Below, one piece after another: positions 1 to 23,337 of a DNA stretch of 32,000 bases. The number at the start of each line of letters is the position of its first letter. Position 1 is the stretch's first letter. The notes under the pieces are model-generated. The model ran no database searches, was not told the origin of the DNA, and saw only the letters and a list, made by a program, of their open reading frames with translations. Location of the stretch: the NCBI GenBank assembly GCA_964577555.1, contig CAZNZM010000010.1, forward strand, positions 1 through 32,000. The letters are read 5' to 3'. Position numbers and translations under genes: made by a program. This stretch comes from an uncultured archaeon (GTDB lineage: Archaea > Iainarchaeota > Iainarchaeia > Iainarchaeales > Iainarchaeaceae).

Positions 1-577
<577 letters not shown>

Positions 578-862
578 TTAATTGTTTATTTTTTTTATCA
601 AGGATGTTGCTATTTTTTTCGCGTTTTCCTTTTTGTTGGTTGATTTTACTATTATTTTTCCGCTTTTAAAAATAGATACGTCTTTCCCGCCGAATTTCAA
701 CATCAAGAGATATGGCGTTTCTATTTCGATAAAAACCTCTTTTTCCCTTAATTTTTTTGCAAGTAATTCAAGGTTCAAAGAGTATTCCCTTTTTGGCACG
801 AATTCATATGCTGTTCTGGAATTGCATGGTTGCCCTATAAAATTGTCAAATTCTATTTTCAT
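578..862 (-). CDS. hypothetical small protein (94 aa)
   Basis: Intact ORF with an AT-rich promoter-like region upstream (863-940). No catalytic motif recognised. The segment VSIFKSGKIIVKST loosely recalls a TBP-like strand-turn-strand, but that is not enough for a call. Confidence 0.45.
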   Translation of the reverse strand: MKIEFDNFIGQPCNSRTAYEFVPKREYSLNLELLAKKLREKEVFIEIETPYLLMLKFGGKDVSIFKSGKIIVKSTNKKENAKKIATSLIKKINN

Positions 863-12720: not shown

Positions 12721-14313
12721 TTATAAATCAAACGGCACTATGCCTTGTTTGACGTATTTCTCTACAATTTCTTGGGTACAATCAGTGTCAGTATTGTACC
12801 AAGAATTAGGATCAAGTTTATATGTGCAAACTCTTGGATCGCATTTTTTGTCATCGTTAATGCAGGTGAGTGCTACTTTGACATTTTGTTGGCATTCTTT
12901 GACGAATAACGAATGTTGAATTGATAAGCAATACTTGTCATCTTTCATTGCCACTGCATAGCGGTTATAGCATTGTTCAGTGCCACTATATTTCAATGAT
13001 CTCATTTCTTTTCTTTGAACTTTGTCGCAAACTTCTGGGACTTTTGCGTCAAGCGCGATTTTTGCATAACAATCCACGTATGCTGAATCTCTTTGGATTT
13101 TTTCGCATTTTCTTGAATCTTTGGTATCAAATGCAATATCGCTAATGCATTTTTCAAACAGTGATTGGTTTGTCCTGCTTATGCCGATGCACAAATCTTC
13201 GTTCTTGATTTTTTTGGATGTTTCGAATATGCATTTATCTTTAAGATCTGTGTTTCCATCTATTTTTAAGCATCTTTCAATTGAATTGAAATCGGAAGCA
13301 TATGCGTAATAACATTCGTTTCTTATTTTTAATTCATTTATTAATGGACAAGTTGATTCGCCATACAAGTTGGTTGCAATATATTTTATACACGAATTTT
13401 TTAATTCATATTTCAAGTTATAACACGCTTTTACGTCTCCTCTTTTGGAAGCATACCATGCGCTGCAATAATCAAATGCATTTTCGTCTTTTACTATGCT
13501 GCAAGAAAAATTTGTGTCTGGAACATTTGATGCGTTTTTGAAGCACTCTGCACTCAAAGCTTTGTCAACAAAGTGGTTACATTTTTCCCCATTATTTGCC
13601 ATGTTTATTTGTTTTAGGCAATCGTCTCTTGCATTTACTCCGACTATTTTATAAGTATCGCTGACTTTAAGGCAAATATCTGGGTCGTTTGTACTTGCCG
13701 CAATTCCTTTATAACATTGGTCTCTGGTTTTAGGCTCAAAAATATTTTTACAAGTATCAAATGTGCCTATTCCGTTGTAGCAATCATCTTTTTTGGCTAC
13801 ATCTTCTATATATTTACAAATTTTGTTGTTTTTAAGTGACTTTCCCACTGAATTATAACAATCGTCTTTGAGATATGTGTCTATGATTTTTATGCAGACG
13901 TTGTAATCAGCCATTGCAACTCCTGCCTCAAAAAAGCATCTTGACTTGAATTCTTCCGACACCAAAGTGCATGGAAATTCGGATTTGTTGGAAGTTGCGG
14001 TGTTAATAAGGCAAATTTCAGCATCAAGAGGCGGGCCAGCATTGCATTTTTCTATGCTACGAACAACTTCTACAGGCACGCCAGGGTATTTATCCAAATT
14101 TATGTCGATTATTTGCTGTTTTGCATCTTTGTTTTCGTCTTCTTTGGGTTTATTAAAATCTATTTGCTTGTTAGTGTCAATATTTTTATTTTGGTCAATT
14201 TCTTTATTTTTATCCAAATTTGGCGGGTTGTCATGTTGTTTGGTTTTTAAACAGCCAAATAATACAATAGATACGCAAAGTATTGCACAAAAAATCAATA
14301 TTTTTTTCTTCAT
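12721..14313 (-). CDS. secreted Cys-rich repeat lipoprotein (hypothetical)
   Basis: Signal peptide with lipobox-like LFGC, then an N/K/D-rich linker. About a dozen degenerate ~30-35 aa repeats follow, each with paired Cys (KDDCY, KKDDCY, TRDQCY, ARDDCL, IRNECY, AYVDCY, TEQCY). Confidence 0.7.
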   Translation of the reverse strand: MKKKILIFCAILCVSIVLFGCLKTKQHDNPPNLDKNKEIDQNKNIDTNKQIDFNKPKEDENKDAKQQIIDINLDKYPGVPVEVVRSIEKCNAGPPLDAEICLINTATSNKSEFPCTLVSEEFKSRCFFEAGVAMADYNVCIKIIDTYLKDDCYNSVGKSLKNNKICKYIEDVAKKDDCYNGIGTFDTCKNIFEPKTRDQCYKGIAASTNDPDICLKVSDTYKIVGVNARDDCLKQINMANNGEKCNHFVDKALSAECFKNASNVPDTNFSCSIVKDENAFDYCSAWYASKRGDVKACYNLKYELKNSCIKYIATNLYGESTCPLINELKIRNECYYAYASDFNSIERCLKIDGNTDLKDKCIFETSKKIKNEDLCIGISRTNQSLFEKCISDIAFDTKDSRKCEKIQRDSAYVDCYAKIALDAKVPEVCDKVQRKEMRSLKYSGTEQCYNRYAVAMKDDKYCLSIQHSLFVKECQQNVKVALTCINDDKKCDPRVCTYKLDPNSWYNTDTDCTQEIVEKYVKQGIVPFDL

Positions 14314-14399
14314 AACACTTTTACAAATAAGATTTGTTTTATATTTAAATATTCTTGTATTGGCTGATTTGTAGAACTTTTTTTTAGTTTATAAATAAT

Positions 14400-14665
14400 C
14401 TCCTTTTTAATAATTATTTTTTTTAAGCCTTGTTTTTTTTTGTTTTAGTTGTTTTTTTGCGAGCCGTTTTTTGTCATTTTTTTGAATTCTTTTTTTTAAT
14501 TATTTTTTTTGCAAGTCATTTTTTTTCAGTTGTTTTTTTTGTGAGCCGATTTTTTTAAACAATTTTTGTTTGATGTTTTATTTTTTTTGCGAACCAATTT
14601 TTTTGTTGATTGGGTTTTTTTATTTTTAAAATGTATAAATTATTTTTTGTGATTTTGTTTTTTTA
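14400..14665 (+). repeat. T-tract / GC-island repeat array, locus B
   Basis: GCGAGCCG 14459-14466, GTCA 14473-14476, GAATTC 14484-14489, GCAAGTCA 14511-14518, GTGAGCCG 14541-14548, GCGAACCA 14589-14596, each separated by T6-T8 runs. Lies between the stop of pan (14678) and the start of the lipoprotein gene (14313). Confidence 0.85.
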
Positions 14666-14677
14666 GACGTTGTTTTT

Positions 14678-15856
14678 TTATGCAAACATTCTTTGCTCCG
14701 GTTTTTCTTCCTGCTTTTTTGAAAGTTTTTTTATCGCCTCATCAAACTCTTTCATACTAACAGAATTTTTATTTTTCCGCAAAGCGAACATTCCTGCTTC
14801 CGTGCATATTGCTTTAATGTCTGCCCCAGTATGTCCTTCTGTTATTTCAGCTAGTTTTCTTAAATCAACGTTTTTTTCAATGTTCATTTTTTTTGTGTAT
14901 ATTTCAAATATTTTTATCCTTGCTTCAAATTGGGGTGGCGATATTTCAATAATTCTGTCAAAACGCCCCGGCCTGAGCAATGCTGGGTCAATCATGTCTA
15001 TTCTGTTTGTTGCGCCTATGATTTTTACTCCTTTGATTTTTTCAAATCCGTCCATTTCAGCCAATAATTGCATTAATGTTCTCTGCACTTCCCTGTCCCC
15101 GTTTGCTGTCATGTATCTGTGCGATGCAACAGAATCAATTTCATCAATAAAGATTATTGACGGCTTTTTTTCTTTTGCAAGGCTGAATAGATCCCTGACA
15201 AGCCTTGAACCTTCTCCTATGTATTTTCTTACCAAATCTGAACCTGAAAGCGAAATGAATACTGAATTGGTTTTGTTGGCGACTGCCTTTGCAAGCATGG
15301 TTTTTCCAGTGCCAGGAATTCCATACAACAATACTCCGTTTGGTGGTTCTATGCCAAGTTTCTCAAATTTTTCCGGTTTTGTCAATGGAAGTATAACAGC
15401 TTCTTCCAATTCCTGTATCTCCTTTTCAAGTCCGCCAATTTGTTCAAATGTAGTATCAGGTTTTTCAATTATTTCCATTGCATTTACCCGCCAATCCCTG
15501 CTTTCAGGAAAAACTTGGGTTATACTCAATGTTCTTTGATTCATAGCCACTCTTTTGCCGGGTTCAAGCAAAGGCGCAAGTTCTGAGAGTGCTTTGACTA
15601 AAAAATCCATTCCATTGCTGTTTCTGACAATTACGTATCCGTTTTGCAATACTTCAACTATTGTCCCGACAATAAGTGGCGGGGATTTCAGTTCGTTCAA
15701 TTCCCTTCTTGCCCTTTCAAGATCCAATTGCAATTGTGATATTCTTGCATTTGTAACTTGTCGTTCAATGTGTAAATTTCTTAATTCTTCTTCCAAACTA
15801 AAAGCGTAATCGTATTGTTTTATTTCTGGTCTTTTTGTTTCATTTGTGTTAGCCAT
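14678..15856 (-). CDS. pan: proteasome-activating nucleotidase (AAA+ ATPase)
   Basis: N-terminal coiled coil, OB region, Walker A GIPGTGKT, Walker B IIFIDEID, the second region of homology, and a C-terminal hydrophobic-aromatic-X tail (MFA). Confidence 0.92.
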   Translation of the reverse strand: MANTNETKRPEIKQYDYAFSLEEELRNLHIERQVTNARISQLQLDLERARRELNELKSPPLIVGTIVEVLQNGYVIVRNSNGMDFLVKALSELAPLLEPGKRVAMNQRTLSITQVFPESRDWRVNAMEIIEKPDTTFEQIGGLEKEIQELEEAVILPLTKPEKFEKLGIEPPNGVLLYGIPGTGKTMLAKAVANKTNSVFISLSGSDLVRKYIGEGSRLVRDLFSLAKEKKPSIIFIDEIDSVASHRYMTANGDREVQRTLMQLLAEMDGFEKIKGVKIIGATNRIDMIDPALLRPGRFDRIIEISPPQFEARIKIFEIYTKKMNIEKNVDLRKLAEITEGHTGADIKAICTEAGMFALRKNKNSVSMKEFDEAIKKLSKKQEEKPEQRMFA

Positions 15857-15995: not shown

Positions 15996-17408
15996 ATGAC
16001 GGATTTTTTCGCTTTGCTTTTTGTTTTTCTAATAATTTCTGTGGTTGTTACTTTTGCAATAAAGAAGTTAACTTTGCAAGAAACTTACTATGTAGCTTCT
16101 CTGATTAGAACAACCAAGCCAATAAAGTTTTTTTCAAGAATGGCTAGACATACAAGGTTTTTGGATTTTATTTCAACTGCAGGCCTGATACTTGGCTTTG
16201 GAACTTTTGCGATAGATTATCTTTATGGGTCAAAGCTGAGAGGTTGGAAAAGGTATTTTCTCAATTTGGCTGGCTTTTTAGTGCTTTCAGGGTTGATGTT
16301 TTTAATAGATTTTTTTGGCGGAAATATTTTTTCAAAAAATGCCATGATGGGAAATGCATATCCTTTATTCATAGCTTCGTTTGGTTTGCTTGGTTTTGCA
16401 GGATTCACCCTTTTTGCACTTTTAATGCAAGCAATTGACATAATAATAAAATATTTTGCAGGTTCAAGAGCGTGTCCGGGTGTTGCTCCTTTGATTCCCG
16501 GAGTTGAAGTTCCAAACGTGCCAATCACGCCGCCGCTTCATGCCTGGATTTCTTTGATAATAATATTAATAGTGCATGAAGCAATGCATGGCATTGTAGG
16601 AAGCAGACATGGTTTCAGAATAAAATCCACTGGTGTAATACTTTTTGGCTTTCTTCCGATAGGTGCTTTTGTAGAACCTGATGAAAAGGAGCTTGAAAAA
16701 GCCGAGCCAAAAAAATTGTTGCCTTTCTTGGCTGCAGGACCTGCTGCCAATCTAACACTGATGGTTATTGTCGGTTTTTTGGTCTTAGGGCTTGTTTTAA
16801 TTTCAAATCCGCTTACTGATTATTTGTATCCTGGCGTGGCAGAAAAGCTTTCCAACGGGGTAAAAGTCGTAAAAGTCAATGATTCCGTGAATTTTTGTGG
16901 TTCGACATATCCTGCGACAGCAAAAGGTTTTTTGTTTGAAGGGGACATCATAAAAAAAATTGATGATGTTGAAATAAAGAGCATTCATTCAATGTTGTCC
17001 GCATTGCAAAAAAACAAGTTTGAAGAAAAAAAATTTGAAGTTGACAGAAATGGTGTTGTTGAAACTTTCAAAATAACTCCAAATTCTTTAGGACAATTTG
17101 GATTCATGGCAGAGGCAATAAAACCAAAAGACGCTCAATTGCCAGCTGGTTTTTCAACCTATGTTTTTTTGTTTTCGTTTATAGTGGAATTTCTTTATTG
17201 GTTGTTCATTTTGAATTTGCTTGTAGCTGCAATAAACTTTTTGCCAATGAATCCTTTTGACGGAGGCAGAATAGCAGGCGTGATATTTTCACACTATGCC
17301 ACTTTTTTAAGCAAGGATGAAAATGAAAGAAAAAAGAAAGTGCAAAAATATTTGGTTTATATAATATTCTCAATTCTTTTGATTAACGCGTTGCCATTGT
17401 TTTTCTGA
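15996..17408 (+). CDS. site-2 protease family (M50) membrane metalloprotease with PDZ domain
   Basis: HEAMHG (HExxH) in a TM helix, PDZ-like GDIIKKIDDVEIKS, and NFLPMNPFDGGR (NxxPxxxxDG). The track ORF starts at 15900, but 15857-15995 is needed as a divergent promoter with pan, so ATG 15996 (MTDFFALL) is preferred. Confidence 0.85.
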   Translation: MTDFFALLFVFLIISVVVTFAIKKLTLQETYYVASLIRTTKPIKFFSRMARHTRFLDFISTAGLILGFGTFAIDYLYGSKLRGWKRYFLNLAGFLVLSGLMFLIDFFGGNIFSKNAMMGNAYPLFIASFGLLGFAGFTLFALLMQAIDIIIKYFAGSRACPGVAPLIPGVEVPNVPITPPLHAWISLIIILIVHEAMHGIVGSRHGFRIKSTGVILFGFLPIGAFVEPDEKELEKAEPKKLLPFLAAGPAANLTLMVIVGFLVLGLVLISNPLTDYLYPGVAEKLSNGVKVVKVNDSVNFCGSTYPATAKGFLFEGDIIKKIDDVEIKSIHSMLSALQKNKFEEKKFEVDRNGVVETFKITPNSLGQFGFMAEAIKPKDAQLPAGFSTYVFLFSFIVEFLYWLFILNLLVAAINFLPMNPFDGGRIAGVIFSHYATFLSKDENERKKKVQKYLVYIIFSILLINALPLFF

Positions 17409-19048: not shown

Positions 19049-19061
19049 AAATTTAGTATTT

Positions 19062-19334
19062 GTGGGCTAGTTCGGAGAGGTAGCGGCTCTCTGTTGCCGG
19101 CAACCCGCTTCAGCCGGGAACGAAGCCACTGAAGAGGCATTAACCATATATTGATGCCTTGCCAGTACTGTGAACTTCTGCTCTTAAAGACTGGCTGTTT
19201 GGGCCAACCCCGCTAGGCCTGGAAGGGAGCAACGGTAACTCATTCAGTCGGTGCTTTAAGGTAAACGGAAGCGAGGAGAGGTTAAGGGTAAACGTCTTTA
19301 TGTGGTTGCTGTCCATTTGGTGGCGCGCCCACAC
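19062..19334 (+). ncRNA. signal recognition particle RNA (archaeal 7S-type)
   Basis: Helix-8 signature CCCCGCUAGGCCUGGAAGGGAGCAACGGUA (compare the conserved AGGCCCGGAAGGGAGCAACGG). The 5' GUGGGC pairs with the 3' GCCCAC to close the molecule. GC content is much higher than the surroundings. ORFs 19140..19367 and 19300..19539 overlap it and are spurious. Confidence 0.88.
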
Positions 19335-19380
19335 TCTTGCAAAAATTATAAAAAAAATACATTTCATTTATACATTTCAT

Positions 19381-20110
19381 TTTTTTTTACTTGGTTTTTT
19401 TTGTAAGTTTTTTTTGTCTTGTTTTTTCGAGCCGTTTTTTGTCATTTTTTTGAATTCTTTTTTTTTTAATTATTTTTTTTTGCAAGTCATTTTTTTTTCA
19501 GTTGTTTTTTTTTGTGAATTTTTTTTTATTTTGTTTTAATTGTTTTGTTTTTGTTTTGGCTGGTTGTTTTTTTTTGTTTCTTTTTTTTGAGTTGTTTTTT
19601 TTAGATGTTTTTTTTTCGAGCCGTTTTTTGTCATTTTTTTGAATTCTTTTTTTTGCGAGCCAATTTTTTTTGTTTTGTTAGTCAAGTTTTGTTTTTTTTA
19701 CGAGTCTTTTTTTGATAATTTTTTTTATTTTTTGATACTTGTTTTTTTTGGTGAGCCACTTTTTTGCCATTTTTCTTTTTTTTGAATTCTTTTTTTTGCG
19801 AGCCAATTTTTTTTGTGAATTTGTTTTTTTTTATTTTGTTTTAATTATTTTTTTGTTTTTTTGAGGTTTGTTTTTTTGTCGGCTATTTTTTTTATTTTTT
19901 TTGCTTATTTTCAAGTCAATTTATTTTTTTTAATTGTTTTTTTTGGCAAGCCATTTTTCGTTTTTTTGCTTGGCCAAGTTTTTTTGTCTTGTTTTTGCGA
20001 GACAATTTTTTTTGTCATTTTTTTTGAATTTTATTTATTTTTTTATGATTTGAATTTTATTTTTTTCTTCGGTATTGTTTTTTTATTTTTCCAGACAATT
20101 TGCGTGATTT
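19381..20110 (+). repeat. T-tract / GC-island repeat array, locus C (largest motif density, internally duplicated)
   Basis: GAGCC[AG] at 19429, 19618, 19657, 19753, 19800. GAATTC at 19452, 19641, 19784. GCAAGTCA 19482, GCAAGCCA 19946, GCGAGACA 19997. Lies between the SRP RNA 3' end and the 3' end of minus-strand CDS 20057..20518, which it overlaps. Confidence 0.88.
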
Positions 20111-20518
20111 ATTTTGCTTTTTTATGACATTTTTTTCTTTTCTTTTTTTGCTTGTTTTTTTGCCTTTATTTTTTTCACTCTTTCCAACAACCCTGTTTTT
20201 CGGTTTTTTCCACGCTTCAAGCGCAGCATCAATTTTTTTTCTTTGTTCGTTTCTTCTTTTTTCTCTTTCATCAAGCTTTGCGATCAACGAATTATATTTT
20301 CTGTGAACTTCTTCGCTGTGTTTTAATGCATTTTTTAAAGAAAGCTCCAAATGCCTTTCTTCCCTCTCTTTATGCAAACCATGAAAAACCCTGTGTAAAA
20401 AACCCAAAGCAACAGAATTATCCGCTTTTGTCTTTCTATATTTGGCTCTTTCTGAATGATGTTTGCTTAAACTTAAATATTTCCTAAATTTAATATAATG
20501 CTTTTCGTGTTTTTCCAT
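20057..20518 (-). CDS. hypothetical basic coiled-coil protein with Lys-rich C-terminal tail
   Basis: 153-aa ORF. The N-terminal two thirds have normal composition with H/K/R/E-rich helices. The last ~50 aa (KKPKNRVVGKSEKNKGKKTSKKRKEKNVIKKQNKSRKLSGKIKKQYRRKK) are encoded by the edge of repeat array C. Confidence 0.5.
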   Translation of the reverse strand: MEKHEKHYIKFRKYLSLSKHHSERAKYRKTKADNSVALGFLHRVFHGLHKEREERHLELSLKNALKHSEEVHRKYNSLIAKLDEREKRRNEQRKKIDAALEAWKKPKNRVVGKSEKNKGKKTSKKRKEKNVIKKQNKSRKLSGKIKKQYRRKK

Positions 20519-21750: not shown

Positions 21751-22506
21751 CTTTTTTATTTGTTTCTGAATCCAATTTTTTTGTCTTTTGGCTTGGTTAT
21801 TCTTGGAGCCTGTTTATTTTATTTTTTTTTTGATTTTTTTGTTTTTTTTGTTTTTTTTGTCAAGTTGTTTTTTTTTATTTTTTTTATTTTGGTTTTGTTT
21901 TTTTTGTGAGCCATTTTTTTTGTGGTTTTTTTTGGTTTTTTTTGTGGGATGATTTTTTTTGTCATTATTTTTTTTTGTTTTTTTTGTGAGCCAATTTTGT
22001 TTTTTTTTGTTTTTTTTGTCAAGTTGTTTTTTTTTAGACTTTTTTTTTATTTTTTTTTAATTATTTTTTTTAAATTGATTTTGTTTTTTTTTGTTTTATT
22101 TTATCATTTTTTTTGAATTATTTTTTTTCTTGGTTTTTTTGTTTTTTTTGGTATTGCTAGCCATTTTTTTGTCATTATTTTTTGTGAGCCATTTTTTGTT
22201 ATTTTTTTTGTGATTTTATTTTTTTTATTTAAATTGTTTTGTCTTTTTTTGTGGCTTGTTTTTTTGATTTTTGTTTTTTTTGGCGAGCCGTTTTTTTTGT
22301 GGGGCAATTTTTTTTGTTATTTTTTTTGTGGACTTGTTTTATTTTTTTGTTTTTGTTGGCTTGTTTTTTTGGAGAATTTTTTTGGCAAGCCGTTTCGGAC
22401 TTATTTTTTTTGCTTTGTTTTTTGCTTGTATTTTTTTCAGCATTTTTTTGAATTTGTTTGTTTTTCATTTTTTTGTTTGGCCTTTTTTTATGGTTATTTT
22501 TTAATT
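21751..22506 (+). repeat. T-tract / GC-island repeat array, locus D
   Basis: GAGCC[AG] at 21908, 21988, 22186, 22285. GCTAGCCA 22156, GCAAGCCG 22385. GTCAAGTTGTTTTTTTTT occurs twice (21858, 22018). GTCATTATTTTTT occurs twice (21961, 22171). Spans from the tRNA-Asn 3' end to the stop codon of minus-strand CDS 22507..23337. Confidence 0.88.
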
Positions 22507-23337
22507 TTATAAGGTGTCAGAATGCAGTTTTTGTTCTTTGGCTGGCTGCTTATCTGCTTGATGACTTTTGTGTTCTTTTATTTTTTTAAGAGTCTCATAA
22601 TATGCGCCTATAACGTCTTTGAGTTCCATTCTTCTTTTCAAGCCCAGCCTATGAACTTCTTGAAAATACACTGTTACGAGTCTTATTGCAACTTCTTCAT
22701 CGCTTAGGTTCATCCAGTTTTCCTCCATCATTTTTTTACTAATCATACTTTCTAATTTGTTTTTTTCATTATTTTCTGCTTCGTTTGTTTGTTCAGTTTT
22801 TTTTGTTTCAGGTTCACTAATAATTTCTTCCGTGTCTTTTTCTTCTATTTTGATTGGGATTTTTTTTATTATTGTTCTGGTTTTTACTACTGGGACTTTT
22901 TTTACGATTGTTTTCGTTTTTATAACTGGGACTTTTTTTATTATTGTTCTCACGATTGTTTTTGGTTTAGCTTTCACTTTTTTTATGATTGGCTTGCCTT
23001 TTTTGTATGAAGTCCACAATCTTACTGCTTGTTTGAATGTTTTGCCAGCAATTAATTGCCTTTTCATGAATAAGTTGTACTCTGAAAGTTGCTTCTTTGA
23101 TTTTTTCTTTGAAAGCTTTTCCAGATTTTCTTTTAATTTTTCCATTTCTTTTTTAAGAGAAGCCGTTTTTGCAGTAACAGACTTGACTTTTTTTTCAGCC
23201 TTCTTTTTGACAGCAAAAATTGATTTTTTAAGAGCTTTTGCCTTTTTGCTTTCAGATTTAAGGGTTTTTTTAAGTTTTTTTAATTCTTTTCTGACTTTTT
23301 TTCCAGGGTTTTTTGATTTAGAAACCATTGTTTTCAC
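22507..23337 (-). CDS. Lys-rich hypothetical protein (candidate nucleoid/chromatin-associated)
   Basis: 276 aa. K-rich coiled-coil N-terminus, the segment LSEYNLFMKRQLIAGKTFKQAVRLWTSYKK resembling the first helices of HMG-box/YABBY domains, three 12-aa tandem repeats (TIIKKVPVIKTK / TIVKKVPVVKTR / TIIKKIPIKIEE), an acidic linker and a globular C-terminus. TATA-like TTTAAATA ~25-32 nt upstream. Confidence 0.6.
   Translation of the reverse strand: MKTMVSKSKNPGKKVRKELKKLKKTLKSESKKAKALKKSIFAVKKKAEKKVKSVTAKTASLKKEMEKLKENLEKLSKKKSKKQLSEYNLFMKRQLIAGKTFKQAVRLWTSYKKGKPIIKKVKAKPKTIVRTIIKKVPVIKTKTIVKKVPVVKTRTIIKKIPIKIEEKDTEEIISEPETKKTEQTNEAENNEKNKLESMISKKMMEENWMNLSDEEVAIRLVTVYFQEVHRLGLKRRMELKDVIGAYYETLKKIKEHKSHQADKQPAKEQKLHSDTL

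Follow-up and report, generated by a model that had tools for sequence, protein, structure and literature searches.

A block of seven short islands separated by T runs, found at two loci 5 kb apart in the window (the whole 32,000-nt stretch of DNA analysed here), is in our judgement quite probably a young paralogous copy between two members of a non-coding, strand-polar family of oligo-T arrays. The islands would then be identical because the copy is recent and not because each of them is selected, and the lengths of the T runs would have slipped later. The block is an ordinary event within an unusual repeat family, in which one-stranded, terminator-like satellite DNA makes up ~4% of a reduced DPANN genome.

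The genome, 0.98 Mb in size with 34% G+C, is in 15 contigs, and the window is its contig C10. FtsZ of the window is 94-95% identical to that of MAGs labelled Candidatus Iainarchaeum (DPANN lineage), and archaeal genes for a PAN-like AAA ATPase, FtsZ, GMP synthase, GlmS, a HerA-like helicase and an M50 peptidase represent its housekeeping functions. Four oligo-T arrays, all with T on the plus strand, are present in the window. The arrays, the copies of the block and the genes next to them are positioned as follows.

1-619, plus strand: array A, at the contig start, holding a T43 run
12721-14313, minus strand: gene for a 530-aa protein without Pfam match, its start codon 147 nt from block copy B
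14340-14679, plus strand: array B, filling the spacer between two minus-strand genes, from the PAN ATPase stop to where the 530-aa gene starts
14460-14544, plus strand: block copy B, 85 nt, CGAGCCG-T6-GTCA-T7-GAATTC-T8-AATTA-T8-GCAAGTCA-T8-CAGTTG-T8-GTGA
14678-15856, minus strand: gene for the proteasome-activating AAA ATPase (PAN-like), its stop codon abutting array B
19060-19334, plus strand: archaeal SRP (7S) RNA gene (RF01857, 130.9 bits)
19380-20175, plus strand: array C, from the SRP RNA 3' end to the stop of the minus-strand ORF 20057-20518
19428-19517, plus strand: block copy C, 90 nt, islands as in copy B, T runs of 6, 7, 10, 9, 9 and 9
19617-19646, plus strand: partial third copy within locus C, CGAGCCG-T6-GTCA-T7-GAATTC, i.e. 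the first three islands of the block with T6 and T7 unchanged
21822-22502, plus strand: array D, from tRNA-Asn to the stop of the minus-strand ORF 22507-23337

The first T9 run of array C lies 46 nt past the end of the SRP RNA, and block copy C begins 94 nt past this end, in a convergent spacer. At its other side, the last ~120 nt of array C overlap the Lys-rich 3' end of ORF 20057-20518; array-style sequence at 20057-20230 encodes the Lys-rich C-terminal tail of this minus-strand ORF, and in same-genus genomes a gene for a Lys-rich protein directly abuts the SRP RNA. The T43 homopolymer of array A occupies positions 12-54, right where the contig begins, and probably arose as an effect of the assembly end. 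That arrays always adjoin the stop codon of a minus-strand gene is true in the window; as a general rule this was discarded, since it fails genome-wide.

The initial annotation had reported that the blocks at loci B and C align end to end with all islands identical, and that four T runs are of unequal length (8 versus 10 once, 8 versus 9 three times). Both observations were reproduced exactly. The seven islands occur in one order and agree in 43 of 43 island bases, and the T runs of copies B and C measure 6/6, 7/7, 8/10, 8/9, 8/9 and 8/9 nt, so that four of the six differ and the longest exact string common to both copies is 38 nt. In the whole genome, the adjacent island pairs GAATTC to AATTA, AATTA to GCAAGTCA, GCAAGTCA to CAGTTG and CAGTTG to GTGA were found at loci B and C only, and a fifth pair, GTCA to GAATTC, is likewise confined to these two loci, including the partial copy. 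Array A carries a diverged relative of the first three islands, CGAGCCA-T8-GTCA-T5-C-T12-GAATTC. The similarity between the copies ends sharply on both sides, on the left within a T run and on the right after the common GTGA. Beyond GTGA, copy B runs on into the common island GTGAGCCGA. The right flank of copy C (GTGAA-T9-ATTTTGTTTTAATTG) is part of a different module, GTGAATTTG-T9-ATTTTGTTTTAATTA, which is duplicated within array C; the right edge of the block is therefore a module junction at GTGA.

The genome was searched with an array detector requiring at least five runs of T6 or longer with gaps of at most 22 nt. This gave 126 array loci spanning 38,255 bp, or 3.9% of the 0.98-Mb Candidatus Iainarchaeum-like genome, four of them in the window. 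Their architecture consists of T7-9 runs and islands of 1-15 nt arranged head to tail, non-coding and strand-polar. Among the 2,642 array runs of at least 5 T, the length distribution has its mode at 8 and drops sharply above 9; runs of 7-9 nt account for 73% of them, and for about 82% of the array runs of 6-12 nt. The start-to-start period is broad, mostly 13-17 nt. There are about 1300 island variants, ~65% of islands begin with G, and the recurring words include GTCA, GAATTC/GAATTA, GYGAGCCR and GTCAAGTTG. No description of such arrays was found in the literature searched.

Several common explanations for a repeated intergenic sequence were rejected. Array-specific ORFs were not found in the window arrays, and changes in run length would shift reading frames, which speaks against a coding function. 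A structured RNA is not supported either: no Rfam family was found in the arrays, and the block folds more weakly than shuffled sequences on both strands (minimum free energy, z +1.3 to +1.85). A mobile element of the REP/BIME or MITE-like kind was dismissed given that there are no inverted repeats and no target-site duplications and that the edges lie inside array sequence. A-tract bending as a specific reading does not fit the period of 13-17 nt, which compares with about 10.5 nt for bending.

Arrays exchange multi-island segments, and they do so preferentially between neighbouring loci. Exact blocks of at least three islands common to arrays numbered 71 genome-wide. Repeated five-island strings of at least 29 nt were observed 33 times, versus 0 in 200 shuffles in which islands were dealt randomly among all arrays, and therefore the match between copies B and C is not due to chance. 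Ranked on homopolymer-compressed sequence, this pair came about 26th among array-array matches and is thus typical and not unique. Distances of no more than 15 kb separate 24% of the 17 strongest locus pairs, compared with 2.7% expected, an enrichment of about nine times; loci B and C, at a distance of 5 kb, are within this range.

T-run length changes much faster than island bases. Where matching segments have no island mismatch, unequal lengths were counted for 59 of 127 T runs (46%), so that identical islands together with four of six changed runs are what is expected of a young copy. In the 207 matches of at least 80 bits, the fraction of runs that differ is 0.54, versus 0.085 mismatches per island nt; for comparison, 78% of randomly paired array runs are of unequal length. 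Differences in length were seen in 1 of 24 runs of 5 nt and in 26-39% of runs of 6-10 nt, and were mostly of 1 nt. The block at loci B and C can thus be read as an internal clock, in that T-run length changes at least 10-fold faster than bases in this Candidatus Iainarchaeum-like genome. The largest common array segment links G000:C1:76575-77323 with G000:C7:48-459 and comprises 19 identical islands in succession, with a length difference in just 1 of the 18 T runs. One of its copies sits at a contig start, and the segment is either a very recent duplication or one locus assembled twice.

Non-reciprocal transfer would have made the copy, either by ectopic gene conversion or by template switching in replication or repair. 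The switch points would lie in low-complexity microhomology, on the left within a T run and on the right after the common GTGA, and mosaic junctions at such microhomology would point to non-reciprocal copying. The four run-length differences (+2, +1, +1 and +1) would have come after copying by replication slippage, with run lengths wandering inside a stationary range of 7-9 nt. One of the possibilities raised by the initial annotation, a recent copying or gene-conversion event across the 5 kb between the loci together with slippage of homopolymers, is supported by the abrupt edges, the private island pairs, the enrichment of neighbours and the fast change of T runs. All four differences go in one direction, copy C being longer (two-sided p = 1/8, not significant), and this one-way direction is not predicted by slippage. 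As far as can be judged from sequence, the arrays are most likely satellite-like DNA that was seeded from archaeal oligo-T terminator tracts and spread by copying and slippage.

Such behaviour resembles that of micro- and minisatellite tandem arrays, which evolve by slippage, unequal exchange or gene conversion and concerted evolution. Both are made of short units placed head to tail, show homopolymer indels far outpacing substitutions and share segments between arrays, more so between neighbours; fast lineage-specific turnover and a stationary, focal-length-like distribution of run lengths are further common traits. Unlike micro- and minisatellites, the oligo-T arrays do not repeat one monomer, the many island variants being set between near-constant T7-9 runs, and they are strictly one-stranded over whole contigs and take up 3.9% of a 1-Mb archaeal genome. 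The mosaic intergenic repeats of bacteria (REP/BIME, BOX) are similar in being modular, word-built and present in intergenic regions at many loci. They differ from the oligo-T arrays, which are without a palindromic or hairpin unit, strictly strand-polar and built on a homopolymer backbone.

Identical islands between drifting T runs could also indicate that the islands are the selected information, for example ordered protein-binding words (GYGAGCC, GTCA, GAATTC). The words are strongly oriented: GAGCC occurs 211 times in arrays in T orientation and GGCTC 0 times, while outside arrays the two are unbiased (472 versus 494). Moreover, the sub-block GYGAGCCR-T-GYCA-T-GAATTC recurs in the window at 134-178, 241-273, 14459-14489, 19428-19456, 19617-19646 and 19751-19787. 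However, an orientation bias of words within arrays follows automatically if arrays grow by self-copying. Four of five adjacent island pairs of the block are restricted to loci B and C, and identity stops abruptly at the block edges. In other common segments, island divergence forms a continuum from 0 to >10%.

The comparison of orthologous loci in sister genomes, which the initial annotation had proposed as a check, further weakens selection on the islands. In the two same-genus genomes G001 and G002, whose PAN is 71-72% identical, the spacers 3' of PAN and of the SRP RNA are both short and array-free. The arrays at loci B and C are recent, lineage-specific expansions. G001 and G002 contain a few small arrays that are alike in architecture and use a different island vocabulary. 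The GYGAGCC-in-T-run motif was found in 0 of 40 related genomes, an exact-pattern scan of a genome-contig collection for the motif returned no match, and a metagenome-contig scan returned chance single matches only, without arrays. Purifying selection on the islands, as suggested in the initial annotation, is not needed given the spread of island divergence and the array-free orthologous spacers, and we consider it very unlikely.

The other suggestion had been that T-run length is a tunable parameter, setting helical phasing or the spacing of islands, or switching a neighbouring gene by phase variation. Run lengths are indeed tightly distributed, with 7-9 nt dominant, and hypermutable, and their mean differs modestly between arrays (F 2.48 versus a shuffle maximum of 1.51). 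Against this, copy B occupies the stretch 147-231 nt upstream of the start codon of the minus-strand 530-aa gene, the nearest one, and is outside any plausible core promoter, and copy C is found in a promoterless convergent spacer; these unrelated gene contexts argue against tuning of spacing or phase. The period of 13-17 nt shows no 10.5-nt phasing. An upper limit of ~9 applies equally to runs inside genes and in ordinary spacers, and the run-length distribution is identical in all genome compartments (means 7.56, 7.56 and 7.57; mode 8). Tunable run length therefore fits poorly with one genome-wide distribution and is most improbable. The run lengths fit a spacing code less well than they fit a mutational focal length or U7-9 being preferred in general, and the peak of the distribution could stem from selection for U7-9 instead of such a focal length. 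In bacterial contingency loci (Neisseria, Haemophilus, Campylobacter), homopolymer tracts lie inside the reading frame or between the promoter elements of a specific gene. The oligo-T runs share with such phase-variable tracts a homopolymer length that is hypermutable by slippage; unlike them, they are found in bulk in non-coding arrays, which have no set relation to a gene.

The arrays are hard to assemble. An artefact was also considered, in which the assembler threaded one sequence twice or the run-length differences are homopolymer errors. Of the 30 contig ends, 12 fall within an array or next to one, as do 8 of the 11 scaffold gaps, and the T43 run is located at a contig start; arrays in general should thus be treated with caution. 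Loci B and C, however, lie in the interior of the contig, contain no gaps and have unique genes and unique array sequence on their flanks, and with no more than 38 exact bases in common the two copies follow distinct k-mer paths. In addition, the open reading frames of 688 of the 841 called genes contain 2138 A/T runs that are 7 nt or longer. As these long runs keep their frames open, the homopolymer error rate of the assembly must be far below the 30-50% of runs that differ between copies. This indirect evidence favours real run-length differences between the copies, and an artefact is highly unlikely.

Archaeal termination is driven by U-tracts of 4-7 U, especially by two or more of them, and several tracts raise termination efficacy via aCPSF1 (PMC8716108). 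The genome encodes aCPSF1, and on sequence grounds each T7-9 run would act as a strong archaeal U-tract terminator signal for T-sense transcription (U-tract plus aCPSF1/FttA). Downstream of the SRP RNA (array C) and of tRNA-Asn (array D), T6-T10 runs provide the at least 4-7 sense-strand T of such a signal. The arrays are thus similar to archaeal oligo-T/U-tract terminators working with aCPSF1 (FttA; PMC8716108) in having several sense-strand T runs of this length in a row and, for arrays C and D, in starting just behind T-sense SRP RNA and tRNA genes. They differ in tract number, which is ten to fifty within 100-850 bp for an array and one to three for a terminator, and in placement, which does not track T-sense gene ends. 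Array B lies between two minus-strand genes. Genome-wide, an array is present at 17% of T-strand gene ends (57 of 337 spacers) and likewise at 17% of A-strand gene ends (72 of 416). Arrays are present in 29% of convergent spacers versus 9-12% elsewhere (2.5-3 times), with 11% for divergent spacers. The equal placement at T- and A-strand gene ends, together with the arrays in divergent spacers, looks like tolerance rather than need, and one-way termination may be a by-product of satellite-like spread.

Alternatively, the arrays, including the block, might be functional polar elements, serving as redundant one-way transcription barriers or being oriented with respect to replication or segregation, and copying between loci would then spread a useful element. 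The strong T-sense U-tract signal predicted for every run, the presence of aCPSF1 and the enrichment in convergent spacers are in line with this idea. So are a polarity that is uniform per contig even where fourfold sites show no T-over-A bias (613 T versus 2 A runs) and a main polarity flip that adjoins the best Xer-type recombinase gene of the genome. On the other hand, gene ends of both strands are adjoined equally, divergent spacers also carry arrays, the orthologous spacers of congeners lack them and their sequence turns over fast; furthermore, copying that requires homology keeps the orientation of the recipient without any selection. Taken together, a function as polar elements is possible and rather unlikely.

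A T5+ tract was observed within 120 nt downstream of 81-100% of genes on the T-array strand, versus 24-47% of genes on the opposite strand. Opposite-strand genes without such a tract run into A-rich sequence, for example downstream of 14678 (PAN), 20057 and 22507. Judged by these tracts, half the genes seem to lack a canonical U-tract terminator, and array polarity bears on how genes on the A-rich strand, which are half of all genes, end transcription.

The polarity of the arrays was compared with strand composition bias at fourfold sites, with skews given relative to the T-array strand. Three parts of the genome were distinguished.

C2, C3, C4 and C1 above 149 kb (~440 kb): strongly biased, fourfold AT skew -0.43 to -0.74 in either gene direction, GC skew +0.17 to +0.26
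C1 below 149 kb and C5-C8 (~400 kb): unbiased, fourfold AT skew ~0, GC skew -0.10 to -0.17
Window contig C10: intermediate, fourfold AT skew -0.11, GC skew +0.02

Per gene, the fourfold AT skew is trimodal, with peaks near -0.65, -0.1 and +0.65, and patchy along contigs, and the fourfold GC skew has opposite signs in the biased and unbiased compartments (+0.2 versus -0.15). About 40% of the genome shows no T-over-A bias at fourfold sites. Arrays of this unbiased part are just as polar, with the 613 T runs and 2 A runs given above, match those of the biased part in run-length distribution, island composition and GAGCC orientation, and exchange segments with them. Base composition or local mutation bias therefore cannot wholly explain the polarity. 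Homology-dependent copying preserves orientation once it is set and does not account for the initial orientation in unbiased regions. Perfect polarity and identical grammar in these regions hint at an influence on the arrays that goes beyond neutral drift. That array polarity persists without strand composition bias is a new point and reopens the question of what sets it. The arrays might be polar chromosomal elements instead of passive by-products of strand T bias, with an orientation that is set and kept independently of base composition, for instance through a tie to fork direction, to chromosome segregation or dif, or to one-way transcription insulation across the genome. We regard this as unlikely; if true, the block at loci B and C would be an example of how such elements propagate.

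Polarity is uniform in nearly all contigs, the exceptions being one main flip on C1 and a single opposite-sense array on C12. The main flip, from A-type to T-type, lies at ~148-150 kb of C1 (G000:C1:147406-150423, locus L128) and coincides, within ~2.4 kb, with a switch from unbiased to extremely T-biased codon third positions. The stretch contains the gene for a 292-aa Xer-type tyrosine recombinase (Phage_integrase 161.7 bits plus a SAM-like N domain), the best of the genome. The junction spacer on C1 yielded no convincing dif-like inverted repeat. Two Orc1/Cdc6 homologues are encoded at G000:C1:~60960-61265 and G000:C4:~16076-16246, neither at a skew or polarity switch, and their positions (~61 kb on C1, ~16 kb on C4) do not support a replication origin at the polarity flip. 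A KOPS/Chi-like orientation test on the unclosed genome gave one main flip beside the Xer-type gene and no flip at the two Orc1/Cdc6 genes. The arrays at 147406-147957 and at the contig end (170918-171274) of C1 have a 10-island block in common, which is inverted, so that its copies bracket the 22-kb C1 segment after the flip. This segment is possibly a real inversion, a terminus/dif region or a mis-oriented piece of the assembly.
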